Positions 28,965 to 47,062 of a stretch of 61,847 bases of DNA are shown here, piece after piece; position 1 is the first letter of the stretch, and the number at the start of each line of letters is the position of its first letter. This stretch comes from Patescibacteria group bacterium (GTDB lineage Bacteria; Patescibacteriota; Minisyncoccia; Phycocordibacterales; SBAW01). Position numbers and translations under genes: made by a program. The notes under the pieces are model-generated. The model was not told where the DNA came from. It saw only the letters and a program-made list of their open reading frames with translations, and made no database searches. The stretch is from the NCBI GenBank assembly GCA_040389385.1, contig JAZKAA010000001.1:1-61847 (forward strand), written 5' to 3'.

Positions 28965-29916
28965 CCAAGTTTTTTTCCAATTGCTCGCGTGTTAAGAGGC
29001 CCTTTTGCGCGCCTATCTCCTGCAGCACTGCCGAGGCGTTGACCGAGCCCCACATTAATGCCTCGGACAAACTTTTGCCCAGGCTAAGGGCAACAGTGGT
29101 GGTTGATGCAAGCGCATCTCCCGCGCCGGTTATCTCAAATGGTGCGCGCGGGTCTGGGTAGCGAGGGCAATGCAGCGTGGCGCCTGCCTCATCTATGGAG
29201 TAGCAGCCGCGTTTGTCGTCGGTAATCACTACTATTTTTGGCCCGAGTGCTTTAATGCCGGCAAGGAGTTGTTTGATATCGCTACCCACAGGGAGGCCCA
29301 AAATATGCTCGGCCTCTTCTTTATTGCAAAAGATAATATCGGTGCGTTTGTACACATCGGAAAGCGCTTCTTTGCCGATCTTAAATTGGAATGTTCCCGG
29401 TTGGAAGGCGAGCTTGGTAGTGCTCCAGCGTTTAAGCTGCTCGGCCAATGCGTTGTGGTAGGCGAGCGAATTTTCGCCCAGCGACGATAGGTACAGCCAC
29501 TTGGGGCCGGAGGGGAGCGGCGGCACGCGATACTCAAACTCCTCGTGTTTAACTAAAATAGTGCGGTTGTCGTCGTACCACAGTACAAAATGGTGGTTGG
29601 TGTGCTTGCCCTCTACACGCTCAACAAACGTACTGTCTACTTTGTCTTTGAGCAGCGAGGCAAGACACTCCTGGCCCTCTTGGTCGGCGCCCACATAGGC
29701 ACGCAGGCCCGAGTTTATCCCTAGCCGCGCCGCAGCCACGGCGGCATTGACCGCGTTGCCCACCGCAGGCACAAGCGTTGCAGACTCAAAAGGTATTTTG
29801 TCGCCCCAGCGCATACATATCTCGCAGTCCTCGTTGTTGATGTTGCAGTGCACCGACGCATCTTTGAGCCGGATAAACTCATCTACGACAATGTCGCCCA
29901 CGGCCAAGAAGTCCAT
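28927..29916 (-). CDS. PfkB-family carbohydrate kinase (ribokinase-like)
   Basis: N-terminal MDFLAVGDIVVDEFI, a GNAVNAAVAAARLG block, and the C-terminal nucleotide-binding motif ITGAGDALASTTTVAL. Its 3' end overlaps the convergent tkt-C by 38 bp. Confidence 0.8.
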   Translation of the reverse strand: MDFLAVGDIVVDEFIRLKDASVHCNINNEDCEICMRWGDKIPFESATLVPAVGNAVNAAVAAARLGINSGLRAYVGADQEGQECLASLLKDKVDSTFVERVEGKHTNHHFVLWYDDNRTILVKHEEFEYRVPPLPSGPKWLYLSSLGENSLAYHNALAEQLKRWSTTKLAFQPGTFQFKIGKEALSDVYKRTDIIFCNKEEAEHILGLPVGSDIKQLLAGIKALGPKIVVITDDKRGCYSIDEAGATLHCPRYPDPRAPFEITGAGDALASTTTVALSLGKSLSEALMWGSVNASAVLQEIGAQKGLLTREQLEKNLATPPAPFVVEPF

Positions 29917-29932
29917 ATATACTTACTAGTAT

Positions 29933-30781
29933 ATGCTGTCTTTGCGAGATGCGGTCGCGGAATATAAACAGACGGGGAAAGCCATCGGCCACTTCAACAT
30001 AAGTGACTCCAACCAGCTCGAGGCCATCGCCCAAGCAGCTAAAGAGGCCAGCCTACCGGTGATTATTGGCTTGTCGGAGGGCGAGCGGGAGTACTTTCCG
30101 CTTGCGCATGCGCGCTCGCTGGTAGATGACTATATAAAGGAGGGCATACAGATGTACCTCAATGCCGACCACACGTACGGCTTGGACAAAGCCAAGGCGG
30201 CTATAGATGCCGGCGTAGACTCGATAGTGGTAGACGGCGCCAAGCTGCCGTTGGCGGAGAATATCGCGCTGGTCAAAGAAGTGGTGGAATATTCGAAAGG
30301 CAAAGTAATAGTAGAGGGCGAGTTGGGCTACATCGGGCAGTCATCCAGCCTGCACGACGAGCTGCCGGAGGGCGTCTCGCTGGAAAACTTGACCACGCCC
30401 GAAGATGCAAAAAAGCTGGTGATGGAAAGTGGCATCGACATGCTCGCCCCGGCGGTGGGTAATATCCACGGCATGCTCAAAAACGCCGCCGAGCCGCGCC
30501 TGCATCCGGACAGGGTCAAAGCAATTGCCGAGGCGACGGGCGTGCCGCTTGTGTTGCATGGCGCGTCGGGCAATACCGAGGATGATGTGCGCGCATGCAT
30601 TGCTGCGGGCGTGGCTATCGTGCATATCAACACCGAGCTGCGTGTGGCGTACAAAGAGGAGCTGGTAAAGACGCTCCGCATGCACCCGAGTGAGGTAGCT
30701 CCGTACAAACTCCTGGCCCCCGTCGTCTTGGGTATGCGCACGTATGTAGCCCACAAACTTAGGGTATTTGCTAATAAATAG
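29933..30781 (+). CDS. fba: Class II fructose-bisphosphate aldolase
   Basis: AIGHFNISDSNQLEAIAQAAKEASLPVIIGLSEGE, LNADHT, GNIHG and PLVLHGASG match the class II FBA/tagatose-bisphosphate aldolase family. Confidence 0.9.
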   Translation: MLSLRDAVAEYKQTGKAIGHFNISDSNQLEAIAQAAKEASLPVIIGLSEGEREYFPLAHARSLVDDYIKEGIQMYLNADHTYGLDKAKAAIDAGVDSIVVDGAKLPLAENIALVKEVVEYSKGKVIVEGELGYIGQSSSLHDELPEGVSLENLTTPEDAKKLVMESGIDMLAPAVGNIHGMLKNAAEPRLHPDRVKAIAEATGVPLVLHGASGNTEDDVRACIAAGVAIVHINTELRVAYKEELVKTLRMHPSEVAPYKLLAPVVLGMRTYVAHKLRVFANK

Positions 30782-30804
30782 GTTTTTCTGTATAGTGTGC
30801 CGAC

Positions 30805-31464
30805 ATGGATCTGGTAGTAGAAAAGCGTGATACCAAGAAAAAGGCTAAATCTCTCCGCGAGAAGGGCCTTTTGCCTGCGGTTATATACGGCCGCTCCGAG
30901 GAGTCGACCCCCATTTCTGTCGATGCCAAGGTATTCGGCAAGCTGTTTAAGACGGCCGGCGAGTCCACTATTTTGACTATCAAGGGTCTCGGCGAGGACC
31001 GTCAGGCGCTTATCCAAGAGGTAGACTTTGACGCGGTCAACGGCCAGCCGGTGCATGCCGACTTTTATGCAATCGAAAAGGGCCAAAAGGTAACCGTCTC
31101 CGTACCGTTTGAGTTTGAGGGCGTATCGCCGGCGGTTAAGGAGCTTGGTGGTATTTTGACCAAGGTTATGCACGAGCTGGAAATGGAGGTAGAGCCTGCA
31201 GAGCTGCCGCAGCACATTGTGGTAGATATTTCCAAACTTGAGGCGCTTGATAGCCAAATAAAAATCAGCGATTTGTCGTTGCCCAAGAGTGCCAAACTGT
31301 CGGTTGACGCCGATGAGGTGGTTGCGATGATTTCTGTGGCTAAAGAAGAGGTAGAGGAGGTTGCAGCACCGGTTGACCTCTCTGCAATAGCAATATCCGA
31401 AGAGCGCGGCAAGAAGCCTGACGAAGAGGGCGCCGCCCCAGCAGAAGGAGAGTCCAAAGAGTAA
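30805..31464 (+). CDS. rplY: 50S ribosomal protein L25 / general stress protein Ctc
   Basis: REKGLLPAVIYG, HADFYAI and the acidic C-terminal extension are typical of the long Ctc form. Confidence 0.9.
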   Translation: MDLVVEKRDTKKKAKSLREKGLLPAVIYGRSEESTPISVDAKVFGKLFKTAGESTILTIKGLGEDRQALIQEVDFDAVNGQPVHADFYAIEKGQKVTVSVPFEFEGVSPAVKELGGILTKVMHELEMEVEPAELPQHIVVDISKLEALDSQIKISDLSLPKSAKLSVDADEVVAMISVAKEEVEEVAAPVDLSAIAISEERGKKPDEEGAAPAEGESKE

Positions 31465-31466
31465 TT

Positions 31467-31490
31467 AAATCCCGCCACTCGGCGGGATTT
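31467..31490 (+). terminator. Hairpin terminator after rplY
   Basis: AAATCCCGCC-ACTC-GGCGGGATTT, followed by a weak, interrupted U-tract (CCGTTTAT). Confidence 0.5.
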
Positions 31491-31498
31491 CCGTTTAT

Positions 31499-31960
31499 AA
31501 AAAGCAGGAGAGGCGACCCGAAGGCCGCCTCTGAGAAATTATTGGGAATGGGAATCTTGTGTGCTTTACGAACCTTTGCTCGCAAGGCGTTCCCATTTCC
31601 GGTCAATCCCTAACAACCGCAGATCGCCAACCATCTTGGCGAAAAACGAACCTATCCGGACAGTTGCTAGTCCGAGGACTAGCGGTGATGGAGAGTCACC
31701 TCTCGGATAGGGCGTGGCAGGATAAATCCTGGAGATTTGGGCTACATTGCTGTGCCCGTCGATCTCTTTGGATCATTGAGCGAAGCCCACCGGTCTACCA
31801 CGCTTTCCAGCGTCCCCTCCAGGGGAGGGGACGCTAGCCCTCGAAATTTTGCAGTGTGGAAAGATCATCGTGGATTGTTTTGAGCTTGACTAGAGCTCTC
31901 TGCAATCCACTAAAGTCGCGGCCAAGTCATGGCTACCTCCTTTTCGAACAAAATATTAAT
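31499..31960 (-). ncRNA. Candidate structured non-coding RNA of unknown class (~440 nt); orientation inferred
   Basis: No ORF of 60 aa or more on the minus strand within this interval, apart from the 3' end of the 31340..31606 shadow ORF, which runs into rplY. At least 8 perfect or near-perfect hairpins are present (listed in the finding). On the minus strand there is a terminator with a C(UUCG)G tetraloop and a T-run at 31499-31532, and a TTGACG-17 nt-TATTAA promoter-like site at 31956-31984. Confidence 0.45.
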
Positions 31961-32060
31961 ATCATATTAAATATTATTCGTCAAGTATCTCTAAAAGAAA
32001 ATGGGATTTTCATAGTAAGCCAAACCAGCCCTTCTACGTCTGTTAGAATATAGATAACTA

Positions 32061-33446
32061 ATGAAGGCACGGACTTTTGTATTGGGGCTGAGTACCTTTG
32101 TTGCCTTGGGCACAGCGGTCTACTGCATGGCCACTATTATCCCGCGCGCACAGGCGCAGGAGTTGACCCCGCAGGAGCGGGCCACGCTGCAGGCCCAGTA
32201 CGACCAGCTCCAGCAGGAGATAGCCCAGTACCAAAAGGTAATCGACGACACCAAAAATAAGGAAAAGAGCCTGCAGGGCGACGTAACCCAACTGGACGCC
32301 CAGATTAAAAAGGCGCAGGCCGAGATAAACCAGCGTACGCTCACTATCAACACGCTCACGAGCCAGATAACCCAAAAGGCAAAAAACATACAAACCCTGC
32401 AACAAAAAATAGACGCCGGCCACGACTCGCTCGCCAAAATACTGCGCGAAAAGGACCAAATAGACACGACCTCGCTCATGATACTGGCACTGTCCTCCGG
32501 TAGCCTCTCGCAGCTGATGGCCGACACCGACAACATCGACTCGGTCAATCAAAACCTACAGGACCTCTTTGATGAGCTGCGCGGGGTCAAGCAGCAGACC
32601 GAGGCCGAAAAGGCCGCGCTTGCAGCCCAGCAGGACAAGCAGCTCGATGCCAAGCACGATGCGCAGGTGCTGAAAGCTGCCGTCAGTACGGCCCAGCAGC
32701 AAAAGACCACGGAGCTTACCGTAACCAAGGGTCAGGAGAGCGCCTACAACAAAGTATTGGCGCAAAAGCAGGCGCAGGCGCAACAAATACGCAATGCGTT
32801 GTTTAACCTCCGCGACACCAAGGGTATTACCTTTGAGTCGGCGCTCCAGTACGCCACCGTAGCGCAGCAAAAGACCGGCGTCCGCGCCGCGCTTATTTTG
32901 GCAATCCTTTCGCAAGAGTCAGACCTTGGCGCCAATATCGGCAGCTGCTATGTAGGCAACCTCTCGACCGGTGACGGCTCGCGGATTAAAGACGGCACCG
33001 CGTACGAAAAGGTAATGAAGGCACCGCGCGACACCACGCCGTTTGAGGCCATTACCTCGGCGCTGGGCCTGAGCTGGCAGTCGACGCCTGTGTCGTGTCC
33101 CTTGGGCAGGACCTACACCTCCAGTCGTGGCTACGGCGGCGCCTTGGGCCCGTCGCAGTTTATACCGTCGACCTGGCAGCTGTTTGCTCCCCGTATAGAA
33201 AAAGGCTTGGGCGAAGGCACGGCCAACCCGTGGAATCCGCAAGACGCCATTATGGCCACCGCGCTCTATATGTCGGACTTGGGTGCAGGTAGCCAAAGCT
33301 ACACCGCCGAGCGCAACGCCGCCTGCAAGTACTACTCGGGGCGCTCCTGCGACACGCGCAGCCCCATCAACTACACCTACGGCAACTCGGTAGTAACCAA
33401 GGCAGACACCTTTCAGAAAAACATCGACTTCTTGAACAATTTGTAG
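32061..33446 (+). CDS. Secreted coiled-coil protein with C-terminal lytic transglycosylase (SLT_2/MltB-like) domain
   Basis: Signal/TM at the N-terminus. About 230 aa of Q/K/E-rich heptad sequence follows, then AALILAILSQESDLG (catalytic Glu context) and GGALGPSQFIPSTW. Confidence 0.75.
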   Translation: MKARTFVLGLSTFVALGTAVYCMATIIPRAQAQELTPQERATLQAQYDQLQQEIAQYQKVIDDTKNKEKSLQGDVTQLDAQIKKAQAEINQRTLTINTLTSQITQKAKNIQTLQQKIDAGHDSLAKILREKDQIDTTSLMILALSSGSLSQLMADTDNIDSVNQNLQDLFDELRGVKQQTEAEKAALAAQQDKQLDAKHDAQVLKAAVSTAQQQKTTELTVTKGQESAYNKVLAQKQAQAQQIRNALFNLRDTKGITFESALQYATVAQQKTGVRAALILAILSQESDLGANIGSCYVGNLSTGDGSRIKDGTAYEKVMKAPRDTTPFEAITSALGLSWQSTPVSCPLGRTYTSSRGYGGALGPSQFIPSTWQLFAPRIEKGLGEGTANPWNPQDAIMATALYMSDLGAGSQSYTAERNAACKYYSGRSCDTRSPINYTYGNSVVTKADTFQKNIDFLNNL

Positions 33447-33467
33447 AGTTGTGATACATTACTTGGC

Positions 33468-33677
33468 GTGAAAAAGGATACCCACCCGACATACTTTCCC
33501 GAGGCAAAAGTAACCTGCGCATGCGGGAATGTCTTTGCCGTGGGATCAACTAAGGAAAAGCTGGAGGTAGAAATCTGCTCCAACTGCCATCCGTTTTATA
33601 CCGGCAACGACAAGATACTCGACGCCGCCGGACGTGTAGAAAAGTTTAAGGCCCGCCGCGCAAAAGCAAGCAAGTAG
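33468..33677 (+). CDS. rpmE: 50S ribosomal protein L31
   Basis: [10 protein letters not shown]...CACGN...[10 protein letters not shown] is the canonical Zn-binding L31. GTG start. Confidence 0.95.
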
Positions 33678-34538
33678 ATGGATCTAGACAAATATAAACA
33701 AAACCCCAAGACAGCACACTTGGTGGGGACACTCCAGTATCTCCAAAACGACGCTGACAAGGCGGCGCTCATCGCGCAGATGGACGAAATTTTAAAGTCC
33801 GAGGAGGGGAGCGACGAGTCGCCCAACGAAGTGGTGCTCGAGGTGCGCGCCGGCGTGGGCGGCCAAGAGGCCGCGCTCTTTGCCGAGGAGCTTGCCGATA
33901 TGTATCGCTCCTTTGCCGAGCGCGAGGGGTGGAATGTCCGCGTCATGTACGAGAGCAAGACCGACTTGGGCGGCTACAAAGAGGCCGCGTTTGAGCTGCG
34001 GGGCCTGGGCGTATACGACAAGCTGCGCTACGAGACGGGTGTGCACCGGGTACAGCGTATCCCCGCTACAGAAAAGGCCGGTCGCATCCACACCTCTACA
34101 GCCTCGGTCGCGGTGTTGCCGATACGCAAAAAGCACAAGATAGAGCTTAACCCCGCCGACATCGAGTGGGAGTTTAGCCGTGCGGGCGGCGCCGGCGGGC
34201 AAAACGTCAACAAAGTAGAGACTGCCGCGCGCGTCATCCACAAGCCGACCGGCCTTGATGCCCGCAGCCAGGCCGAGCGCAGCCAGGCCGCCAACCGCGA
34301 GCGGGCTATGGCTGTGCTTATGGCCAAGATAGAGGCGCTGCACGAAGAGCAGCAGGCCAAGGCGCACGCCGACGTGCGCGCCGAGCAGATAGGCACCGGC
34401 GACCGCTCAGAAAAGATCCGCACCTACAACTACCCGCAAGACCGCGTCACCGACCATAGGCTTAAAGAGAGTTGGTCTAACATCCCCAAAATTTTGGCGG
34501 GCAACCTTACTGCTATTGTAGATGCCTTCAAAAAGTAA
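33678..34538 (+). CDS. prfA: Peptide chain release factor 1, N-terminally short form (286 aa)
   Basis: [14 protein letters not shown] (P-x-T tripeptide, so RF1 and not the RF2 SPF motif). GGQ motif in [25 protein letters not shown]. The ATG directly follows the rpmE stop, so no upstream extension is possible. Confidence 0.85.
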
Positions 34539-35466
34539 TTGGTTGGCGCTTGGTATAGGGCTCGCCGCACTTGTGGTGTGGGCGAGTATTTGGAGTATTG
34601 CAGAGGCCCCGCATGATTTGGTGCGTAAAGAAAAGCAATCAGTGACCGTGCTGTTTGCCGGTGATATTATGCTCGACCGCAATGTGGCCGCGTGGCGCGA
34701 GTCAGACCCGGCGCCGATGTTTGCGGGGGTTGCTGACGTGTTTAACCAAGCCGACTACCGCGTGGCTAATCTCGAGGGCACCGTTACCACAAACTCCTCT
34801 ATTGCGCGGCAAAATTCCAAGATTTTGCGCTTTACCTTTGACCCGTCGTTTACCGAGACGGCGCTTAAACCTCTGCATCTCAGTGCCGTCTCGCTTGCCA
34901 ACAACCATGCGCTCGACTTTGGCGAGTTTGGGTACGACGACACTATTGCCTGGTTGGACGCACATAGCATCCAGCACTTTGGTCAGCCGTACAATGACAC
35001 GGGAAAACTGTCGACCGTGCTCCATACCAAGCTTGGCGACATTTGCCTGATGGGCTACATGGGCGTGTGGGGTGGGAGCACTACCAACACAGTGAGCGCC
35101 ATTGAGGCGCTGCGCCCAAGTTGCTGGCGCGTAGTGGTGTTTGCACACTGGGGTATCGAGTATCAGACAAGCGCGAGCCCCGAGCAGGTGGCTGCGGCGC
35201 ATGCGTTTGTTGATGCCGGGGCCGACGTGGTCATTGGCGCGCACCCGCACGTGGTCGAGCCGGAGGAGACCTATGCCGGGCACGCTATCTTTTACTCCCT
35301 TGGCAACTTTATGTTTGACCAAGAGTTTAGCCCTGAGGTCCAAAAGGGCCTTATGGTACAGGTCGATTTTGGTGCCGAAAAGACATGCTTTACCCCTATT
35401 CCGGTAGGTATAAGTCATGCCACAACGGCTGCTTTGGCGCCGCTAGACAGCCTATGTCTGTCGTGA
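34522..35466 (+). CDS. CapA-family (PGA_cap) metallophosphatase-like protein
   Basis: N-terminal [46 protein letters not shown] and [10 protein letters not shown]. Confidence 0.8.
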
Positions 35467-35581
35467 TATGGGCCTCGACGTCCATATAACCGTCGCTTCG
35501 GTCAGAATACAAGCAAGCTTGCATTCCTCCCTCCGCTAGGTTATAACTTACCCACGCCCAGAGGGGCATTTTTGCTAAAAC

Positions 35582-36316
35582 ATGTCTAACGACCTTATAG
35601 AAAAGTTGTTTAAAGTCGGGGCCCATTATGGGCTCTCTTCCTCGCGCCGTCACCCGAGCTCGCGCCCGTTTCTTTTTGGTAGCAAGGGCGGCACGGAGTT
35701 GTTTGATCTCGAAAAGACGAGCGCATTTTTGACCGAGGCACTGGAGTTTATCGCCAAGCTCGCCAAGGACCGCAAGGTGGTTTTGTTTGTCGGCGGCAAG
35801 GCCGAGGCCCGCGAGGAGGTCAAGCGCACAGCCGAGTCGCTCAATCAGCCGTACGCGGCGGCCCGCTGGATAGGGGGCTCGCTCACCAACTGGGCCGAGA
35901 TTAAAAAGCGCCTCAACCGCCTGCAAGAGATTACGGACCAGACCAAGAGCGGTGAGCTTGCCAAGTTTACCAAGCTCGAGCGCTTGATGATTGAGCGCGA
36001 GGCGACCGACCTCACCACTATGTTTGGCGGCCTTGTCGGCCTCACCAAGCTCCCCGACGCGCTTGTTGTTGTAGACCCCCGCGCGCAGGCAGGTGCTGTT
36101 GCCGAGGCTAACGCACTCAATATCCCTGTGGTTGCCTTGCTCAACTCCGACTGCGACGCAAGCACTATTGAGTACCCCATACCCGCCAACGATGCATCTA
36201 AAGCAACTATAGAGTATGTGCTCGCGCAAATTGCCGAGGCGTACCGCGATAACTTGGGCGCTGTTCCGACAGCTCCTACAGCGGCAGCAGCTCCTGTTGT
36301 GCCGGAAGTGCGTTAA
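35582..36316 (+). CDS. rpsB: 30S ribosomal protein S2
   Basis: LFKVGAHYGLSSSRRHPSSRPFLFG, FVGGKAEA, RWIGGSLTNW and the DPRAQAGAVAEANALNIPVVALLNSDCD block. Confidence 0.95.
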   Translation: MSNDLIEKLFKVGAHYGLSSSRRHPSSRPFLFGSKGGTELFDLEKTSAFLTEALEFIAKLAKDRKVVLFVGGKAEAREEVKRTAESLNQPYAAARWIGGSLTNWAEIKKRLNRLQEITDQTKSGELAKFTKLERLMIEREATDLTTMFGGLVGLTKLPDALVVVDPRAQAGAVAEANALNIPVVALLNSDCDASTIEYPIPANDASKATIEYVLAQIAEAYRDNLGAVPTAPTAAAAPVVPEVR

Positions 36317-36325
36317 ACTACAAAC

Positions 36326-36781
36326 ATGGCAATTTCTGCAGAAGCGGTAAAAGAGCTCCGCGACAAGACAGGCGTTTCTATGATGGAGTGCAAGAAGGCG
36401 CTTGAGGAGGCCGGCGGCGACATGGAGAAGGCACTTGGTATCTTGCGCGAGCGCGCAGTGGTCCAGGCAGGCAAAAAGTCCGATCGCGTCTTGGGCGCGG
36501 GCACGGTACAAAGCTACATCCACAACACCGGGCAGGTGGGCGCGATGGTACTTTTGTCGTGCGAGACAGACTTTGTATCTAAAAATGACGAGTTCATGGC
36601 CTTGGCGCGCGATATCGCAATGCACGTCTCCGCGATGCGTCCGGCCAACACCGAGGAGCTTCTTGCCCAGCAATACATAAAAGACCCGTCTAAAACTATC
36701 GGCGACCTACTTAACGGTGCTGTACAAAAGTTTGGCGAGCGTACAACAGTAAGTGACTTTGCCTGTTTTGCAGTTAAGTAG
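36326..36781 (+). CDS. tsf: Elongation factor Ts, short form (151 aa)
   Basis: AVKELRDKTGVSMMECKKALEEAGGDMEKALGILRE (UBA-like N-domain), followed by the YIHNTGQVGAMVLLSCETDFVSKNDEF core. Confidence 0.9.
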   Translation: MAISAEAVKELRDKTGVSMMECKKALEEAGGDMEKALGILRERAVVQAGKKSDRVLGAGTVQSYIHNTGQVGAMVLLSCETDFVSKNDEFMALARDIAMHVSAMRPANTEELLAQQYIKDPSKTIGDLLNGAVQKFGERTTVSDFACFAVK

Positions 36782-36802
36782 GCAAGCGGGTAGAATAAAG
36801 GT

Positions 36803-37216
36803 GTGATACTTTTTCTTATCGTACTTCTATGTGTGTCGGTAGTCGGTATGGCCGCGCTCTTGGGGCTTAAGCGCTGGGAGATGCAGACCGGCCGTGTGGT
36901 GCTCTCGGCGTGGCGGCCGCAGGTAGGGGCCTTGGCGCACCGGGCGCTTGGATGGGTCGAGTACACCCTGCCTGCTATCCTGCGCCATTGGCTCGCCGAG
37001 GGAGAGGCGTTTGCCCGCAACTTTCTCCATCGGCTCTCGGCACTTATTGTTGTCTTGACCGAGCGCGGCCTAGAGTGGCTGCTCCGCGTCTTGCGCCGCA
37101 GTACCGCAGTACCGCGCAACGACACCGAGGCCTCCGCGTTCCTCCGTGAGGTATCGGCCCACAAAGCAGAGCTCCTGCGCAACTCGGGTACCCGCGAGGC
37201 GATCTACGAAGAGTAA
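36803..37216 (+). CDS. Hypothetical membrane protein
   Basis: GTG start and an N-terminal TM span (ILFLIVLLCVSVVGMAALLGL). No recognised motif. The start is uncertain (alternative internal ATG). Confidence 0.5.
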   Translation: MILFLIVLLCVSVVGMAALLGLKRWEMQTGRVVLSAWRPQVGALAHRALGWVEYTLPAILRHWLAEGEAFARNFLHRLSALIVVLTERGLEWLLRVLRRSTAVPRNDTEASAFLREVSAHKAELLRNSGTREAIYEE

Positions 37217-37272
37217 TCAGAGGTCAAGTTTAAATAAATAACGTTATTTCACACGGTCGTGTAAAATGTGTA

Positions 37273-37821
37273 CTAAGGCTTTAGATGAAAGAAATGCTTC
37301 AACCGTGCTTGATTGTCTATTGAGTCTGCGACTATCAACCGGACATGTTTTTCTAGCTCAAAAGCTTTGTTACTTAATTTTAATAGCTCGACACATGGAT
37401 ACGGATATACGAATACAGAATTTTGTAGGCGGTAAAATCCAAGTTCTGAAAGTTTGCCCTGGAAGAGTCTACGGACATACTGGTCGGTTTCAGGTATATC
37501 AAAGCAAACAACGCGCCACTTTCTGTCCCATGCGTGTTTCTGCTTAGATAGAGAATAGTCTTTAAATTGGAGTCGGGCTAATTTACGTCCTCCTGCAGAG
37601 GTCAGGCGATACCGTCTTTCTCTGCCCGGTATGGCCTCAACATCTCCATCTTTAGCAAGTCTATCGAATGCACGTTTCAATTTCTCCGTCGCCTTGCGAG
37701 GGTTGGGGTCGATAGCTTTGAGGACAAGACCAATACCAGGAGAGAGAGCTAAGACGGCAACCACACCTCCTGTTGCAAGCAGACCAAGCGCTATTTTGGA
37801 AACCAGTCCTTTGTTGTTCAT
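37273..37821 (-). CDS. Membrane-anchored PaaX-like / Cas2-fold domain protein (putative regulator)
   Basis: N-terminal TM, a winged-helix-like RYRLTSAGGRKLARL, then WRVVCFDIPETDQYVRRLFQGKLSELGFYRLQNSVFVYPYP, the PaaX C-terminal/Cas2-like pattern as recalled. The gene lies in an AT-rich islet. Confidence 0.55.
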   Translation of the reverse strand: MNNKGLVSKIALGLLATGGVVAVLALSPGIGLVLKAIDPNPRKATEKLKRAFDRLAKDGDVEAIPGRERRYRLTSAGGRKLARLQFKDYSLSKQKHAWDRKWRVVCFDIPETDQYVRRLFQGKLSELGFYRLQNSVFVYPYPCVELLKLSNKAFELEKHVRLIVADSIDNQARLKHFFHLKP

Positions 37822-37908
37822 CTGTGTCTTTTAGTATAGCACTATTTTACACGGTCGGGTAAAATGCGCACGGGTAGAAAATTTGATATAGTGTGGACTG
37901 TAGCAATT

Positions 37909-37984
37909 GCCACCGTAGCTCAGTTGGTAGAGCACCTCATTTGTAATGAGGCTGTCAGGGGTTCGAATCCTCTCGGTGGCTCCA
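37909..37984 (+). tRNA. tRNA-Thr (anticodon UGU), CCA encoded
   Basis: Manual cloverleaf: acceptor GCCACCG/CGGTGGC, D-arm GCTC-AGTTGGTA-GAGC, anticodon arm CCTCA-TTTGTAA-TGAGG, variable loop CTGTC, T-arm AGGGG-TTCGAAT-CCTCT, discriminator T, then CCA. Confidence 0.9.
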
Positions 37985-38614
37985 ATGAAAAAGTTTATTT
38001 TGTTTGATTTTGATGGAGTTATTGTTGACTCGCACGAGCCTGCCTATCAATCTCAGCGCACGCGTTGCCCGCATCTCACACGAGACGATCATCGCAAACG
38101 CTTCGAGGGCAACGTTAACGACCATCCGGAACATGAGGATGCACATACGCCCGAGTGCCAACTTGACCTTAATTTTTTTGATATCTACATACCCAAGATG
38201 GATACAGTGCCGGTTGTTCTGGGGATGAACGAGGTCATCGCACAACTAGCTACGACGTATACGCTCATCGTTATCTCCTCGACTCTTACCGCTCCAATAC
38301 AAAAACTTCTTGATAGAAACGATTTGGGCAAGTACTTTGTAGAGATCTTGGGGAACGATGTCCATACAAGCAAAGTAGAGAAGATTAAAATGGTCTTCAA
38401 AAAATATGACGTAGGGCCAAAAGACTGCGTCTTTATAACCGATACTCTGGGTGACTTACATGAGGCAGAACATATGGCCGTTGGTGCAGTTGCGGTAACG
38501 TGGGGCTTCCACACGCCGGAGACTTTGCAAAAAGGAAAGTCGTTCAAGCTTGTTTCAACACCACAAGAACTTATTTTTGCTGTAGAAGAGTATTTTGCTA
38601 TTGCTGAGCAGTAG
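37985..38614 (+). CDS. HAD-superfamily hydrolase (phosphatase)
   Basis: MKKFILFDFDGVIVDS (the DxD nucleophile motif), later VISS, and a FITDTLGDLHEA motif-IV-like block. The start was moved from 37946, which lies inside the tRNA, to the ATG at 37985. Confidence 0.8.
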   Translation: MKKFILFDFDGVIVDSHEPAYQSQRTRCPHLTRDDHRKRFEGNVNDHPEHEDAHTPECQLDLNFFDIYIPKMDTVPVVLGMNEVIAQLATTYTLIVISSTLTAPIQKLLDRNDLGKYFVEILGNDVHTSKVEKIKMVFKKYDVGPKDCVFITDTLGDLHEAEHMAVGAVAVTWGFHTPETLQKGKSFKLVSTPQELIFAVEEYFAIAEQ

Positions 38615-39266
38615 AGGTTGCGAGGGTTTTGAGCTCGGGGATCAGCTTCATCATATCGTCCAGATTTTTAAAGCCATAGACCGGTGCGCGGTTGTTGACC
38701 ACTATTGCCGGCAGCGTCCCGTCTAGCTTGCGCAGACGCTCCAGGGTGACCAACGCCGAGAGGTCGAGATGATAGTCAAAGGAGTACACGCGCAAGCTCG
38801 GGTACGTCTCGCGCAAGTAGGTCAACACCTCGCCCATGCGCGCGCAGTCGGCGCAGTCGCCTGCGTTGGAGTAAAAGTACAGCACATAGACTGGCTTAAA
38901 GCTCTTACATTTTTGTGATATCTGCTGCATCAACAGGTAGTCTTTGATCTCCAAAAGAGAGTACTGCTGCTTGAGCGAAACAACCTCGGCGTTGTTGGTG
39001 CCCAGGTTTTGCTCGGCCACCGAGAGCCGGCTGGCAAGGCTGTTGAGCTCATCCGAGAGCGAGGGGTTGCTGGTGATGGCTGAACAGTCGAGGCTCCCCA
39101 AGAGCTCAAACTGGGTCTCGGTGGAGAGGATGTCTATAGAGATAGCCTCTTGCGTAGTGCGGATGTCGGCAACGCGCGCGGCATCAAGCCTGCTAGCCAC
39201 ATAAAATGCCGTGCCAAAGATGGCCGCGGTTATGACAAAAGCAATGACGTATTTTTGATACTGCAT
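38598..39266 (-). CDS. Membrane-anchored thioredoxin-fold-like protein (CxxC)
   Basis: N-terminal TM (VIAFVITAAIFGTAFYV). VYVLYFYSNAGDCADCARMGEVL contains C-A-D-C, followed by LPAIVVNN..VYGF, a thioredoxin-like topology. Confidence 0.5.
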   Translation of the reverse strand: MQYQKYVIAFVITAAIFGTAFYVASRLDAARVADIRTTQEAISIDILSTETQFELLGSLDCSAITSNPSLSDELNSLASRLSVAEQNLGTNNAEVVSLKQQYSLLEIKDYLLMQQISQKCKSFKPVYVLYFYSNAGDCADCARMGEVLTYLRETYPSLRVYSFDYHLDLSALVTLERLRKLDGTLPAIVVNNRAPVYGFKNLDDMMKLIPELKTLATSTAQQ

Positions 39267-39278
39267 GTGGTATGCACC

Positions 39279-40517
39279 TTACCGCCAGCGGCTCTCGCGC
39301 GCAAGGGCGGCGCCCCACGCCGCGCGCATAAGCCACAGCGGCGCCAAAAATCCAAAAAAAGCAAAGTACGCGGCAAACGACTTAACGCCGAGCCCGGTCT
39401 GAGCTATACGGTTACCCAAGAGTATTGCGACCAAGGTCATACAGAGCACCGCCACGATGACAAACAACATGCTGTTGGTGTTGAGGTAAAACCACGTCAG
39501 ATGTGGCGCGGGCGGCACGTGCAGAGGGATGCCGGTGGCAAAAAAGTCGCCCATGCGGCTAAGCACCATGTCGGTTATCCGGTACACCGCGTAGGCGGCG
39601 GTGTATATACCGGCAAAAAAGGACAGCGTCGCAAACGGCAAAATGAGCATCCCAAAGTTGCCGTATCGCTTGTTAAAAAACATATATCCGTAGTCGCGTG
39701 CGTTCATCAAAAACCCTTGTGACCACCGCACGCGCTGGCGCAGGAGTGTGCGGACCGTGTTGGGCACCGTCGTGTAGACAAAGGCGGTGTGCGCGTTGAC
39801 TATCTTGAGATGGTTGGCGTGCATGCGGAAGGCTATCTCCATGTCCTCGGTATTGTGTGCGTGGCGGAAGAGCCCGATTTTTTTAAAGACCTCGCGCTTG
39901 TACATGGAAAAGGGCCCCGGCAGCACGTTGATAGCCGAGAGGTTGTCGAACATTTTTTTATAAAAAATGCCAAAGGTGTACTCAACGTTTTGCATGAGCT
40001 CCAAGAGCGAGCGGGGTTTGTGCACCTTCATTGCCGGTGTGATGGCCATTATTGTGCTGTCACTCTCAAACTTTTTGACTGCCTCTATGAGCGCACTAGC
40101 CTCTACAAACGAGTCGGCATCCAGACAGCCGATAAGCTCGCCTTTAGATTGCTCGATGCCGATATTGAGCGCGGTGTACTTGCCTCCGTTTGCTTTTTGT
40201 ACCAGCGCCACGCGAGTAGGATACTGCGCTGCATAGCGTCGCGCGATATCCGCCGTGCCGTCAGACGAGCCGTCGTCTACAACCATAATGTCGAGTTTAT
40301 CTGCCGGGTAGTCGAGCGCGAGCAGCGAGTCGATGGTGGCACCAACAGTGGCTTGCTCGTTGTAGCAGGGCACCAACATGGTGACCGCAGGGTAGCAGCG
40401 GGGGAGTGCGGTGCTCTTTTTCTCCGGACGCTTTTCAAAGAAGGAAATGAGCAAAAAGACCTCAAAATAGAGGGCGATAAATAGGCACAGATAAAGGCCC
40501 GTGGCCCCAATATCCAT
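39279..40517 (-). CDS. Family-2 glycosyltransferase, membrane-embedded processive synthase type (PgaC/IcaA/cellulose-synthase-like)
   Basis: MLVPCYNEQ, the DxD in VVDDGSSDGT, GCLDADSF, Q-R-V-R-W (QRVRWSQG), and N- and C-terminal TM helices. Confidence 0.85.
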   Translation of the reverse strand: MDIGATGLYLCLFIALYFEVFLLISFFEKRPEKKSTALPRCYPAVTMLVPCYNEQATVGATIDSLLALDYPADKLDIMVVDDGSSDGTADIARRYAAQYPTRVALVQKANGGKYTALNIGIEQSKGELIGCLDADSFVEASALIEAVKKFESDSTIMAITPAMKVHKPRSLLELMQNVEYTFGIFYKKMFDNLSAINVLPGPFSMYKREVFKKIGLFRHAHNTEDMEIAFRMHANHLKIVNAHTAFVYTTVPNTVRTLLRQRVRWSQGFLMNARDYGYMFFNKRYGNFGMLILPFATLSFFAGIYTAAYAVYRITDMVLSRMGDFFATGIPLHVPPAPHLTWFYLNTNSMLFVIVAVLCMTLVAILLGNRIAQTGLGVKSFAAYFAFFGFLAPLWLMRAAWGAALARESRWR

Positions 40518-40543
40518 CGGGGCAGTATAGCATTTTGAGCTTT

Positions 40544-41677
40544 TTAACGCACCTGTGCGCCGTACTGGGCCACCGTCGCTGCTTCGAGCTTTTTGTGCAA
40601 ACTATCGACTTCCTCATTGGTGAGTGTGCGCTCAAGCGAGCGGTAGACAATGCGGTAGGTATAACTCACTTTGTCCTCACCAAATTTCTTGGCGTCGGCG
40701 TAGGTGTCGAGCAGTTGCACCTCCTCGGCCATGTCCTCGCCTACCGTTTCGCGGATAAGGTCAAAGTAATTGTTGGGTGCAAATGTTTTGGGCACTACAA
40801 ACGAGATATCGCGCACCACCGCCGGGTACTTGCTGACCTCTTTAAATTTATTTCCCAACTGCAGTTGAGACATGACGCGCGGGTCGGTGCTCCACAGCAA
40901 GCGGATGTCAGGAAGCTCCATACTAATTATTGCGAGCCGCTCAAGACCAAAACCAAACGCCCATCCGTTGTAACCCTCAAGCCCAAAGTTTTTGAGCACA
41001 CTCTTTTTTGGCATGCCGCCGCCCAAGATTTCTATCCAACGATCACCCACCTTGACCTCTACCTGCAAGCTTGGGTCGGTGTAGGGGAAGGTGTCGTCCA
41101 AAAAGCGATACTCCGCGTCTTTACCAAAGAGACTCTCGACCACTTCCGAGAGCACTTTCTTTAGCTCGTCGAGCGGCATAATACCCATACTGTCCGGCTG
41201 CAAGAGCCATCCGCCAAATTGGTGGAAGACGTTCATGTGGCGGTTGTCTATCTCGTCTTTTCGGTAGACTTTGCCATAACACACACAACCTATCGTCTCG
41301 CCCTTGGCTGCGCGCGCTTTGACCTCGGGCAGTTGCAGGTAGTAGTACCACATGACTGTGTCGTGGGTACGCAATATATTTTTGTCGTCTATGTAGTAGG
41401 TGTCGGAGTGGCTGCGTGCCGGATGATCGGGCGCAAAGTCAAAGAGATCAAAGGAGATGCTCGCCGGTACTACCTCGGGGATAATTATGTTGTCGAGGTT
41501 TTTAAGAGCGTCGGTCGAGCGGGCGCGTTTGACCAGCTCCATAAGCGGACTGCCCGGTGTGCGCGAAAGGTCGGGCATAGCCAGGTAGCGCTTGATCCGG
41601 CTGGCATCGGTGTCGGTGCGGCCTGCTAAGCCTGCAATAAGCTTTTTCTCCTCGTCGATGGGGATGGTGTAGTCCAT
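40544..41677 (-). CDS. pheS: Phenylalanine--tRNA ligase, single-chain form: PheS catalytic core fused to a C-terminal FDX-ACB domain
   Basis: Class II motif 2 (YRKDEIDNRHMNVFHQFGGW) and motif 3 (GWAFGFGLERLAIISMELPDIRLLW). These are followed by SKYPAVVRDISFVVPKTF...VQLLDTYAD..FGEDKVSYTYRIVYRSLERTLTNEEV, the pattern of the ferredoxin-fold anticodon-binding domain. Confidence 0.85.
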   Translation of the reverse strand: MDYTIPIDEEKKLIAGLAGRTDTDASRIKRYLAMPDLSRTPGSPLMELVKRARSTDALKNLDNIIIPEVVPASISFDLFDFAPDHPARSHSDTYYIDDKNILRTHDTVMWYYYLQLPEVKARAAKGETIGCVCYGKVYRKDEIDNRHMNVFHQFGGWLLQPDSMGIMPLDELKKVLSEVVESLFGKDAEYRFLDDTFPYTDPSLQVEVKVGDRWIEILGGGMPKKSVLKNFGLEGYNGWAFGFGLERLAIISMELPDIRLLWSTDPRVMSQLQLGNKFKEVSKYPAVVRDISFVVPKTFAPNNYFDLIRETVGEDMAEEVQLLDTYADAKKFGEDKVSYTYRIVYRSLERTLTNEEVDSLHKKLEAATVAQYGAQVR

Positions 41678-41723
41678 GTGGCGTTACTCTACAATACTAT
41701 ATCCAAAAATAAAAAAGCCGCCG

Positions 41724-42452
41724 TTACTTTACGGCAGCTAGTATGTTTGAGGGCTTGCGGCGTGGCAGGGGAGGATCAAACAAACACTCCCTCCAGATTT
41801 TTGCAGCCGCCGCTAGCGGCATGACCACCGCGCCTTCTGTCGGGTACCCTTTGCCTGGCCCCTGAACCCACGCGTCGATGTCGGCGGAGTAGTGTGGAAT
41901 AAATCGTAGCTTTGGATCGGGCACCCACGCGCCTGATTCGGCTTTCATAACGCCCTTGTACCCTTGGTGGAAAGCAAGTGCGGCACGCGGGCCCAGACAG
42001 ATGCGTTCGCGGGCGATATCGGCAAAGATAGTACAACCGGAAGCGCAGTAGCCGTTGATAACAAAGCTTGCGGTCGGATGTAACAATGCCGCTGTTCCCA
42101 TCAACGCAAAAGCCCGTTGATCGCCTCCGGAGACAGCGATGATGTGGCACGGCATCGAGTCGCATCCGAGTAGGGTCTTGAACACGTCTCGGTCCGGCTC
42201 AACTGGTTCGAATCCTTCGCCTACGCTTTTCGGGATTTTTGCGCTACACCACTCTTTGCACCACTCAAACATGCTGGCGACGGTGTCGTCCCGGTGCATA
42301 ACTGCTGGTGTCGTTGGCGGCCGATCTTTGGGCGATGACTTTTTAAACTCCTGGTGCGCAAAAAAGACCAGAAGCGCCAGCCCCAGTAAATCAAAGAGCT
42401 TTATCCTCACCTGGTCCTCCTTGGTTTGGACTTCAACATCACAGTAGCACAA
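41724..42452 (-). CDS. Hypothetical Cys-rich exported/membrane-anchored protein
   Basis: Hydrophobic N-terminal span (LFDLLGLALLVFFA) and at least 10 Cys. A minus-strand terminator (GCCGT-AAAGTA-ACGGC, then a T-run) overlaps its stop. Start uncertain. Confidence 0.5.
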   Translation of the reverse strand: MCYCDVEVQTKEDQVRIKLFDLLGLALLVFFAHQEFKKSSPKDRPPTTPAVMHRDDTVASMFEWCKEWCSAKIPKSVGEGFEPVEPDRDVFKTLLGCDSMPCHIIAVSGGDQRAFALMGTAALLHPTASFVINGYCASGCTIFADIARERICLGPRAALAFHQGYKGVMKAESGAWVPDPKLRFIPHYSADIDAWVQGPGKGYPTEGAVVMPLAAAAKIWRECLFDPPLPRRKPSNILAAVK

Positions 42453-42477
42453 AAAAGCCGCCTACTTCAACGGCGGC

Positions 42478-42717
42478 TTATGCGTCTTCGATGCCAAATC
42501 CATCGTCATCGTCGTCATCGTCCTCTCCACCGGTACCGTCATCCGGCTTGCCGAGCGAGGATGGCGTGTGGTACTTGAGGGGAAGGAGCGGCGGCAACCA
42601 GATTGCCGGCATCATCGGGCTTGGCTTTAACCATGACTCCGTTGGCGGGGTATCGTACCCCACCGCATATGCCGGCATGGCGATGCACAACAGAAAAAGC
42701 GCGCTGAGTATTTTCAT
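42478..42717 (-). CDS. Small secreted protein with poly-Asp tail (79 aa)
   Basis: Signal peptide MKILSALFLLCIAMPAYA, a Pro-rich middle, and the C-terminal GGEDDDDDDDGFGIEDA. Its own terminator (GCCGCC-GTTGAAGTA-GGCGGC-TTTTTT) lies at 42451-42480 on the minus strand. Confidence 0.5.
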   Translation of the reverse strand: MKILSALFLLCIAMPAYAVGYDTPPTESWLKPSPMMPAIWLPPLLPLKYHTPSSLGKPDDGTGGEDDDDDDDGFGIEDA

Positions 42718-42733
42718 ACGGAACTCCTCCTAA

Positions 42734-44911
<2,178 letters not shown>

Positions 44912-44956
44912 CTGTTTGTAATAAAAAATCCCGCGACGGATGTCGCGAGAGTGATG

Positions 44957-45175
44957 TCATGTGTGGATCCACTCCATGACCGAAGCAAGCGCTTCGTCCT
45001 CGGAGCGATGGATGACGCTGCGGTCTTTTGTGGGGATGACACAGACTGCCCGTTGTTTACTGGCGTTGTGCAGTACAGCGTTTGCCACCCATTTGTCTTT
45101 CTGGTCGTTAGCTTCTTTGACCTCAAGAGCAGTGAGTTCAAATCCTTTGGCTTTAAGCTGAGTGCGTGTAGGCAT
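44957..45175 (-). CDS. Small hypothetical protein (72 aa)
   Basis: ATG preceded by GAGG with a 6-nt spacer. A minus-strand terminator (CGCGAC-ATCC-GTCGCG followed by ATTTTTTATT) sits just downstream at about 44921-44950. Confidence 0.5.
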   Translation of the reverse strand: MPTRTQLKAKGFELTALEVKEANDQKDKWVANAVLHNASKQRAVCVIPTKDRSVIHRSEDEALASVMEWIHT

Positions 45176-45262
45176 GTGCAACCTCGTCGGTTTCTCCCGA
45201 CCGACTATAACAAAACACCTCCCGTTACGCGAGAGGTGTTTTGCGTTCCGTTTAAATCTAAA

Positions 45263-46378
45263 TTAGTACGCGACGTAGGTTTGCTGCGCGGTGTTGTTGT
45301 ACTTGCTTACTTCGTACACCTGACTAAACGGATCGACATTGATGGTGATGGTGCGGGTGTTGCCGTACGCGCTGTAGCCGGCGTTGTAGCTGGTGGAGTA
45401 GGTGTACGGGTTGGTCACGACATTGTAGTTGCTGTAGCCGGCGACTGCGCACGGACCGTACTGGTTGCAGCTGGTCGGTCCGCCGTAGGTTATCGGCGGC
45501 GTGCAAGGGAAGGAGTATCCGTTGCAAGGATTGTTGGTAGTACCGGAGGTGTCCTCGCTGTAGCGCAGCGTGTAGACGATACGATCGCCGGGGTACAGAG
45601 CCTGCTGCGGGCCGGCAGGGTAGCTGTAGCCACTCGGCAGTACTGCGTTAAGAGTCCAGTTGGTGGGCGAGACGTTGGTGCCGACATTGCTTACCGCAAA
45701 GACAACTACTGTATTGCCTCCGCTAGACTGCGCCGAGAGTATAGAGACGGCGAGGTCGGGGTAGCCGCTAAGCGCCGTGGTGCGGCCGCTCGGGTAGTAC
45801 GTGCTCCCGGTGTTGCTTTTGGGCTTGGTAGTAGTGGTCTTGGTTGCGGTCGTGGTCGTGGGCTTGGTAGCGACAGCCGGAGCGGTGACGTTGGTGGTGC
45901 TCGTGCCGCTTACGGTGGTCTGCTTGGTCGAGAGGCTCACTGCCGCAACCGTGATAGTAACCTGTGCCGACTTAGTGCCGTCTGCAAGGATGGCAACGAG
46001 CGGCATCGAGCTCGATGCGTTGGTGTAATTAAACGGCGTATTGCACTGCACAACCTGGTAGCTGCCGGCCGGAGTCGGCGCGGCGAGCGACAGCCCGGTC
46101 CCACAGGAGTAGGAGACACTGTATGCAAACTCGCCCGTGCCGCCCATGTGGCGCCAGGTGATGTTAAACGGCTGTCCGGCTACAACAGCGGCTGGTACCG
46201 AGCTGGTCAGAGACTCTTGCGTCGTTGTGGGCTTGCCGGCAACAGTGCCACCGAGGTTATGAAAGAAGCCGGGCAGCATAAACGCGAGCTGGATAATGCC
46301 CCAGGCACCCAGGAGCAGCACGGCTATAAGCCCGATAACCGCTACGACGCGCAACACGTTGTCCCAAAAGGTTTGCAT
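45263..46378 (-). CDS. Membrane-anchored surface protein with Thr-rich linker and CARDB/Ig-like domain
   Basis: N-terminal TM (VVAVIGLIAVLLLGAWGIIQLAF), a KPTTTTATKTTTTKPK linker, then PDLAVSILSAQSSGGNTVVVFAVSNVGTNVS (CARDB-like). Terminator hairpin at about 45214-45250 on the minus strand. Confidence 0.7.
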   Translation of the reverse strand: MQTFWDNVLRVVAVIGLIAVLLLGAWGIIQLAFMLPGFFHNLGGTVAGKPTTTQESLTSSVPAAVVAGQPFNITWRHMGGTGEFAYSVSYSCGTGLSLAAPTPAGSYQVVQCNTPFNYTNASSSMPLVAILADGTKSAQVTITVAAVSLSTKQTTVSGTSTTNVTAPAVATKPTTTTATKTTTTKPKSNTGSTYYPSGRTTALSGYPDLAVSILSAQSSGGNTVVVFAVSNVGTNVSPTNWTLNAVLPSGYSYPAGPQQALYPGDRIVYTLRYSEDTSGTTNNPCNGYSFPCTPPITYGGPTSCNQYGPCAVAGYSNYNVVTNPYTYSTSYNAGYSAYGNTRTITINVDPFSQVYEVSKYNNTAQQTYVAY

Positions 46379-46465
46379 AGGATGGTTAAATAAAAGTTAT
46401 GTGCCCAGACCGTATCATGGCACTATTGGCTTGTCAAGTAGGGCAAAGAGTGGTGGTATGATGCG

Positions 46466-47062
46466 GTGTATCATACTGACATGACCCGTTTTTGGAGCTT
46501 CTTTGCGACATTTTGTATCCTCTTTGTTATCACAGTGGCGTTTATGGCGTACGTCGATGCTTTGCCCGACAATGGCACCGACACTCCCAGTGTTAACACG
46601 CCACTCGATATACAAACCGTACCGCCCGGCGTGGCCGAGGCACCTACGCGCATCGTGGCCAAAGACATCAAGCTCGATGTCGCTATATCCAACCCGGACT
46701 CCAGTGATGCCGATGTACTCGACGCGGCGCTGCTTAAAGGCGGTGTGCATTATCCAAGTTCGGCCAATTTAAACGAAAACGGCACCGTGTTGTTGTTTGG
46801 GCACTCGTCGTACCTGCCCATAGTCCACAACCAAAACTACAAGGCCTTTGATGGCATCCAAAATCTCAAGACGGGGGAGATAATCAGCGTCTTTTCTGCT
46901 ACCAAAGAGTATCGCTACGCGGTGACCGAGGTGCGTGTTGCCAACGCCGAGGAGGATGTGGTAGAACTGCCTTCTGATAAGCAGTACCTTACACTCATTA
47001 CCTGCGACTCGTTTGCAACCAAGTCTGATAGGTACGTCGTAACGGCTGTTTTAGCCCAATAA
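46466..47062 (+). CDS. Sortase-family transpeptidase
   Basis: N-terminal TM, LLFGHSSY (His), the TLITC catalytic Cys motif, and a trailing DRYVV (Arg). Confidence 0.8.
   Translation: MYHTDMTRFWSFFATFCILFVITVAFMAYVDALPDNGTDTPSVNTPLDIQTVPPGVAEAPTRIVAKDIKLDVAISNPDSSDADVLDAALLKGGVHYPSSANLNENGTVLLFGHSSYLPIVHNQNYKAFDGIQNLKTGEIISVFSATKEYRYAVTEVRVANAEEDVVELPSDKQYLTLITCDSFATKSDRYVVTAVLAQ

Follow-up and report, generated by a model that had tools for sequence, protein, structure and literature searches.

Passages of a 2010 review distinguish three forms of phenylalanyl-tRNA synthetase (PheRS), a bacterial (alpha-beta)2 enzyme, an archaeal/eukaryotic (alpha-beta)2 enzyme, and the mitochondrial monomer, which is called the only monomeric class II synthetase (PMC3275996). 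The canonical enzyme is encoded by two genes, pheS and pheT, and has four subunits, with B1 to B7 including the B3/B4 editing site. Mitochondrial PheRS (human FARS2, structures 3CMQ and 3TUP) is instead a single chain in which a PheS catalytic module is joined to a C-terminal FDX-ACB (B8) domain, with neither a beta subunit nor an editing domain. In an analogous displacement reported in a passage on diatoms, monomer-type PheRS replaces the plastid alpha-beta enzyme (PMC4494062). The PheRS-M family is listed in two further sources, in passages that do not mention bacterial members (PMC11580382, PMC10810186).

The two-domain layout is also known from bacterial proteins. TIGR00469-type paralogs in Bacteroidota (Chryseobacterium, Sphingobacterium, Pedobacter, Elizabethkingia, and Myroides) and in a Ca. 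Berkiella MAG belong to the mitochondrial-type clade, and are 37 to 41% identical to the protein described here. They stand beside a full pheT and are therefore extra copies rather than the housekeeping enzyme. SrmL (NF051887, "PheS-related mystery ligase") has the same layout. A search of the full-text literature returned no description of a bacterium or CPR organism relying on a single-chain PheRS, nor of SrmL; subscription journals and supplements lay outside the search, and a prior description is possible.

The DNA analyzed, referred to here as the window, is a stretch of 61,847 nucleotides from a Patescibacteria assembly of 729,256 bp in 19 contigs (92.12% complete, 0% contamination). On its minus strand an intact, ATG-started open reading frame at 40544..41677, with 377 codons and a TAA stop, encodes a predicted single-chain PheRS (protein P0001). 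Residues 67 to 271 (40865..41479) form the class IIc catalytic core, matched by PF01409 (tRNA-synt_2d) with an E value of 2.3e-49 and 168.6 bits against a cut-off of 19.8. Residues 282 to 377 of the same chain (40547..40834) form an FDX-ACB (B8-type) anticodon-binding domain, matched by PF03147 over the full profile (positions 1 to 94 of 94; E value of 3.7e-22; 79 bits against a cut-off of 31.1). This domain is the C-terminal stretch (SKYPAVVRDISF...) that the initial annotation had quoted when it proposed a PheS-like core with a fused FDX-ACB domain, and the profile search bears that proposal out. The C terminus also matches positions 692 to 798 of the pheT_bact model, and the domain aligns to residues about 310 to 412 of human mitochondrial PheRS. 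The presence of a PheS core and an FDX-ACB domain in one open reading frame is confirmed as real, far beyond chance. A further Pfam match, to RNA_pol_Rpb8 (E value of 0.0027), was below the cut-off and was set aside as noise.

The N-terminal region, residues 1 to 66 (41480..41677), consists of short helices and does not have the coiled-coil arm of the bacterial PheS type. In an AF2 model built from a 70-sequence alignment, helices at residues 8 to 15, 23 to 33, and 44 to 53 have pLDDT values of 90 to 98, and relatives in the clade can be aligned with the protein from residues 1 to 7 on. The model as a whole has a pLDDT of 95.6 and a pTM of 0.90. Its best fold match in the PDB by Foldseek was the closed form of human mitochondrial PheRS, 3CMQ, over the full length (E value of 5.6e-35; TM score of 0.80; 403 columns). 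The tRNA-bound open form, 3TUP, gave a TM score of 0.59, and bacterial alpha chains gave 0.52 to 0.55 over the core only. By sequence, too, 3CMQ scored about 194 to 195 bits, versus 103 bits for the best bacterial alpha chain. The model thus predicts that the protein folds like human mitochondrial PheRS and that its domains are arranged in the same way. An insert of the human enzyme that falls between query residues 159 and 171 is absent.

The likeness to the mitochondrial enzyme does not extend to family membership. The protein scored below the cut-offs of all three relevant NCBIfam models: 237 bits against 300 for SrmL, 220.7 against 258.35 for pheS_mito (TIGR00469), and 147.7 against 237.45 for pheS (TIGR00468). 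The pheS_mito cut-off was passed by all ten mitochondrial-type clade members tested, and named eukaryotic members score 426 to 514 bits on that model. The protein is not a TIGR00469 member, by score or by its placement in the tree described below. Thus, the "mitochondrial-type" label that it had been given holds for architecture and fold but not for clade, as the protein falls below the family score and within a sister clade that is all bacterial. Nor is it a TIGR00468 PheS alpha chain, which it fails by score and for which the genome has no pheT partner. Its catalytic core and B8 domain are homologous to those of canonical PheRS, which acts on the same tRNA.

Residues were compared in 160 aligned sequences, including 18 members of the window's clade and 18 canonical PheS proteins. 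H85, R88, R103, R139, D141, H147, F151, H152, Q153, F197, P198, T200, S203, E216, G219, G221, A240, G242, G244, and R247 are kept in 18/18 clade members and are the same in canonical PheS. We take R139 to belong to motif 2 and G242, G244, and R247 to motif 3. The arginines of motifs 2 and 3 and the Phe-pocket residues that are common to PheS (among them R139, R247, F197, T200, A240, G242, and G244) are present, with the exception of G155. This position is Gly in the window protein, Asp in 12 of the 18 clade members, and Glu or Asp in other groups. SrmL is altered in the alignment at positions 85, 92, 197, 203, 219, 239, and 241. In the window's clade these positions (H85, D92, F197, S203, G219, W239, and F241) are PheS-like. 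SrmL is the top NCBIfam model for the protein and shares its half of the tree, but the protein is not SrmL, because its 237 bits are below the cut-off of 300 and the pocket changes specific to SrmL are absent.

The gene is the sole PF01409 match in a profile search of the genome. The pheT model matched its C terminus and, weakly (22 bits), a 156-amino-acid tRNA_bind open reading frame on contig 7 (C7:44581-44832), which is unlinked to the PheRS gene; nothing else in the genome was matched. B3_4 had no match at an E value of 1 or less, and B5 had only two noise matches (E values of 0.2 and 0.3). The same searches recovered their targets in 14/14 control genomes. A tblastn search with the PheS and PheT of a genome of the same order found only the window gene. 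Thus, none of the hallmarks of the canonical enzyme, the two genes, four subunits, and B1 to B7 with the editing site, was found in this genome, as had been foreseen in the initial annotation for pheT and the beta-subunit editing domain; a second PheS was not found either. The 43 tRNAs identified with ARAGORN include one tRNA-Phe(GAA) (C3:97573-97646), whose discriminator, by reading of the sequence, is A73.

Downstream on the same strand, no pheT follows. The next gene, at 39279..40517, starts 26 nucleotides after the PheRS stop and has Pfam support as a GT2 glycosyltransferase, in line with its first description. It is followed by a 222-amino-acid open reading frame (38598-39266, minus strand) that had been described as thioredoxin-like, a designation that finds no Pfam match at an E value of 0.001 or less. 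Another Patescibacteria genome, G143, has the same order of PheRS gene, GT2 gene, and 222-amino-acid open reading frame. The attribution of the gene to a free-living lineage is not established either, the host being a small-genome Patescibacteria organism.

The position of the gene is the same as that of pheS-pheT in a congener. A sample of 81 genomes of the order included G377, a species of the window's genus that is 99% complete and is collinear with the window from 28930 to 47059, over about 17 open reading frames. Between its GT2 gene and gyrB, G377 carries pheS (a 270-amino-acid frame) and pheT (a 644-amino-acid frame, with 203 bits to B3_4). In the window, the slot that differs (40494..42809) holds the single-chain gene and two further open reading frames, and is flanked on the left by the conserved GT2 gene and on the right by gyrB (42764..44911, plus strand; identified by Pfam). 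Identity to G377 is 58% for the GT2 protein and 77% for GyrB. When the slots were compared by blastn, 38625-40493 and 42810-44910 of the window aligned with G377, and nothing in between did. The single-chain gene is on the strand opposite to that of pheS-pheT, and tblastn with the G377 PheS and PheT detected no relics of either in the window slot. The presence of pheS-pheT in the same slot between collinear flanks shows a displacement in situ, with the direction of the swap inferred.

The two other open reading frames in the slot are also on the minus strand. They encode 242 amino acids (41724..42452) and 79 amino acids with an acidic run at the end (42478..42717); neither has a Pfam family, and no counterpart of either was found in 20 kb from G377 or at the other single-chain loci. 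Both may have come in together with the PheRS gene. A terminator-like hairpin with a T-run (41716..41739, minus strand), a pattern match from a consensus scan and the sequence, lies after the 242-amino-acid frame and 39 nucleotides before the PheRS ATG. This hairpin suggests that the PheRS gene starts its own transcript. A promoter scan of the minus strand gave nothing useful. Among listed sequencing runs that contain the stretch there was no RNA run, and there was one DNA run, which may be the source of the stretch.

The same swap was found in a second genus. The slot between a UvrD/PD-(D/E)XK helicase gene and gyrB holds pheS-pheT in G256 and an inverted single-chain gene in G284. Within 1.5-kb flanks, gyrB adjoins the single-chain gene in 13/18 loci of the window's clade and in 8/36 loci of a second Patescibacteria clade. 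The canonical PheRS of this order is itself reduced, with PheS frames of about 235 to 290 amino acids and PheT frames of about 600 to 660 amino acids (G256:C18:4811-7382; G377 L126:9242-11975; and many others). PheS frames this short indicate that the usual N-terminal arm is missing, and the G256 PheT match, which begins at model position 159, indicates that B1 and B2 are missing.

We searched 301 Patescibacteria genomes, including the window's own and the unpublished G154 (one pheS/pheT-bearing row). A single-chain homolog was present in 20, full length in 18 (49 to 100% identity) and cut by contig ends in 2. B3_4 was present in 273/301 genomes, and its distribution was nearly complementary: it was absent from 19 of the 20 single-chain holders versus 9 of the 281 other genomes (272/281 with B3_4). 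In the sample of the order, the single-chain form was found in 9/81 genomes, and B3_4 in 0/7 of the new holders. One 626-kb MAG, whose record is that of a complete chromosome, likewise carries the single-chain gene and lacks pheT. Thus, among the single-chain Patescibacteria checked, 27/28 are without any B3_4 or pheT match, and the remaining one shows a fragment of 50 positions; many of these genomes are 98 to 100% complete. The holders belong to many different family codes, and the gene tree departs from kinship labels, which suggests transfer among Patescibacteria, a reading that draws on these labels.

The exceptional holder, G293, has a B3_4 fragment alone, covering 50 of 174 positions. 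The match (C6:13971-14123, L125; a 114-amino-acid frame with 34 bits) was rejected as a pheT because it is on another contig with no pheT-like pieces nearby. A chance match, a relic, and a small domain standing alone are all conceivable.

A word-index search returned 6,528 matches, of which the best 120 are 68 to 100% identical, are 344 to 398 amino acids long, and all have both domains. Among these 120, those named at NCBI (from Ca. Kaiserbacteria, Parcubacteria, Nomurabacteria, Paceibacterota, and Minisyncoccia) are called "hypothetical protein," and the JGI name is "phenylalanyl-tRNA synthetase alpha chain." Clusters in the ESM Atlas, from Minisyncoccota, are automatically named "putative phenylalanine--tRNA ligase." An exhaustive search of representatives gave 6,880 matches at an E value of 0.001 or less, and 75 of the best 150 were full length with both domains. 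Single-chain genes occur together with a full pheT (665 to 840 bits) in Chryseobacterium pennae, Sphingobacterium tabacisoli (two copies), a Ca. Berkiella MAG, and a Chitinispirillaceae MAG. Because the Bacteroidota, Fibrobacterota, and Ca. Berkiella copies occur beside a full pheT, the fold alone is no proof of a housekeeping role, and these accessory copies also indicate that the architecture is confined neither to organelles nor to Patescibacteria. What is special to the window's lineage is that the single-chain enzyme stands alone.

A phylogeny was computed with IQ-TREE (LG+C20+F+G4 PMSF) from 67 rows and 397 columns, with 11 canonical PheS rows as the root, on a long outgroup branch. The rows were hand-picked from larger sets, leaving out fragments and the 75 representatives that were not full length. 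The single-chain proteins form a superclade (support 100/100) that splits into two halves. One half is the mitochondrial-type clade (26 rows, 100/99), which excludes the window protein. Bacteroidota are its first branch (100/100), and the remainder is a Ca. Berkiella-like group mixed with eukaryotic sequences. The named eukaryotic rows are Branchiostoma, Aspergillus, a chytrid, a nematode, and Vitrella, and the Branchiostoma protein has 592 bits to human 3CMQ. The other half (30 rows, 93/88) comprises an unnamed pair, the long-branch SrmL clade (100/100), and a clade that we call CPR-type (24 rows, 97/88). All members of the CPR-type clade are bacterial, and they fall into two groups, the window's clade (100/100) and a second one (99/95) with labels of Harrison-, Wolfe-, Jorgensen-, and Moranbacteria, inside which Fibrobacterota and an Oligoflexia MAG are nested. 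Two larger trees, a FastTree of 160 rows and a quick tree of 103 rows, are in accord with these groupings.

We consider it highly likely that the gene encodes the only PheRS of this organism, a single-chain enzyme whose clade is the sister of the mitochondrial type, and that it has displaced pheS-pheT in situ. Of this reading, the layout, the single copy, the exchange at one locus, the distribution complementary to that of pheT, the retained catalytic residues, and the predicted fold are observed; we infer the activity, the monomeric state, the hinge, the loss of editing, and the direction of the swap. With the PheS module and B8/FDX-ACB in one chain, the protein would do alone what the (alpha-beta)2 enzyme does with four subunits. 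By homology, the core is expected to form Phe-AMP and pass Phe to tRNA-Phe, and the C-terminal domain to bind and read the GAA anticodon. The closed arrangement of the human enzyme is reported to clash with the acceptor stem (PMC3275996), so that the anticodon-binding domain is expected to turn through a large angle when tRNA binds. By analogy, the window protein would probably swing about a hinge, from closed to open. As there is no B3/B4 editing site, PheRS would not edit Tyr-tRNA-Phe after transfer, and fidelity would then have to rest on the active site alone. The gene probably took the slot of the pheS-pheT operon by transfer from another Patescibacteria lineage.

Other explanations have to be weighed against this one. 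The gene might be an accessory paralog, with the real pheS-pheT in the unassembled 8% of the genome. A genome that is 92% complete leaves room for this, and the Chryseobacterium, Sphingobacterium, Ca. Berkiella, and Chitinispirillaceae genomes demonstrate that single-chain genes can accompany a full pheT. However, the congener's pheS-pheT fills the very slot that the window gene occupies, on a contiguous 65-kb contig, and 27 of the 28 single-chain Patescibacteria, many of them 98 to 100% complete and one a complete chromosome, have no B3_4 or pheT match. An undetected pheS-pheT is therefore very improbable. We regard it as just as hard to believe that the protein is a PheS-derived ligase for another substrate, like SrmL, rather than a PheRS. 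SrmL is the best NCBIfam match and has the same two domains, but true SrmL proteins score 376 to 420 bits on NF051887, far above the 237 bits of the window protein, and form a separate long-branch clade. The seven positions changed in SrmL retain their PheS residues in the window's clade, and the genome has no other PheRS.

The protein might also be a PheRS that does not act as a lone monomer but needs a trans-acting tRNA-binding protein, or dimerizes. In three genomes of family f29, which is not the window's, an open reading frame of 120 to 154 amino acids lies directly upstream of the single-chain gene (G206:C3:129954-130310, which is L020:2669-3025; G265:C2:59457-59810; G293:C1:10989-11336) and matches pheT positions 41 to 151 (tRNA_bind/OB) with 91 to 100 bits; the window's genome has its own tRNA_bind frame on contig 7. 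Yet that frame is unlinked and matches pheT weakly, similar small tRNA_bind frames also occur in the pheS-pheT-bearing G256, and human mitochondrial PheRS is reported as an active monomer (PMC3275996). We judge a partner or a dimer unlikely. If a mitochondrial PheRS gene had recently been captured from a eukaryote, or if the bin were contaminated with eukaryotic DNA, this would account for human mitochondrial PheRS being the best PDB match, but either origin is extremely unlikely. The neighbors of the gene on both sides are bacterial and collinear with the congener, the protein is without the insert of the animal and fungal enzymes, and it belongs to an all-bacterial clade outside the clade of the named eukaryotic sequences (supports 97/88 and 100/99, respectively). 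The f29 frame, for its part, could be what remains of the beta subunit, or it could help to bind tRNA in trans.

A single-chain enzyme that displaced pheS-pheT remains our preferred reading of the window gene, and the tree bears on where such enzymes came from. When rooted on PheS, it has the eukaryotes as one part of a clade from which Bacteroidota branch first, and the sister group of that clade (CPR-type, SrmL, and Fibrobacterota proteins) is wholly bacterial. On this basis we tentatively suggest, as a possibility that could well prove wrong, that the fusion of the PheS core and B8 arose in bacteria and not in the mitochondrion, and that eukaryotes took over a ready-made enzyme. The module would still be moving among bacteria, repeatedly ousting pheS-pheT at the pheST-gyrB locus in Patescibacteria, with cells lacking PheRS editing as the outcome, and serving as a spare in larger genomes. 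In the trees, the bacterial sequences closest to mitochondrial enzymes are from cultured Bacteroidota (L043-L062, among them L046 from C. pennae and L047 and L049 from S. tabacisoli).

A bacterium that appears to live on monomer-type PheRS alone, and a related species with pheS-pheT in the same slot, provide a natural before-and-after pair. It becomes testable how a cell manages when its PheRS does not edit against Tyr or meta-Tyr, what the minimum size of PheRS in a cellular genome is, and what the source of the mitochondrial enzyme was. Single-copy markers for assessing genome completeness and for phylogeny include the pheS and pheT models. Where these are applied, single-chain lineages would be scored as lacking them, while the replacement is named "hypothetical protein" at NCBI.

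The paralog of C. pennae is flanked by AraC-family regulators. On a Ca. Berkiella MAG contig (L064 628-10299), the accessory paralog is in a tight co-directional row with genes for a PTH2 peptidyl-tRNA hydrolase, a Pol-beta nucleotidyltransferase, a Thg1-like enzyme, an AAA_33 kinase-like protein, an HD protein, an NAD-ligase-like protein, a UvrD helicase, and a Kelch protein. This row looks like a tRNA repair or backup-translation module. Single-chain genes in Peribacteria-labelled MAGs (L088:5902-7026, L093:5884-7011, and L096:2171-3268) contain 8 to 17 in-frame TGA codons and no other stops. When these genes were aligned with the window protein, of which 6.1% is Gly, 25 of 36 TGA codons faced Gly, including the conserved G219, G221, G238, G242, and G244, a pattern that fits genetic code 25.

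The editing domain can also be missing from a two-gene enzyme. In G074, a Patescibacteria genome that is 99% complete, a pheT frame of 640 amino acids (G074:C12:4868-6748; L037, L041) matches model positions 1-196 and 377-798 and is without B3_4. Two genomes of the same genus (G268 and G282) likewise have no B3_4 match. Judged from its domain content, a pheT of this type is a candidate second route to a PheRS without editing.
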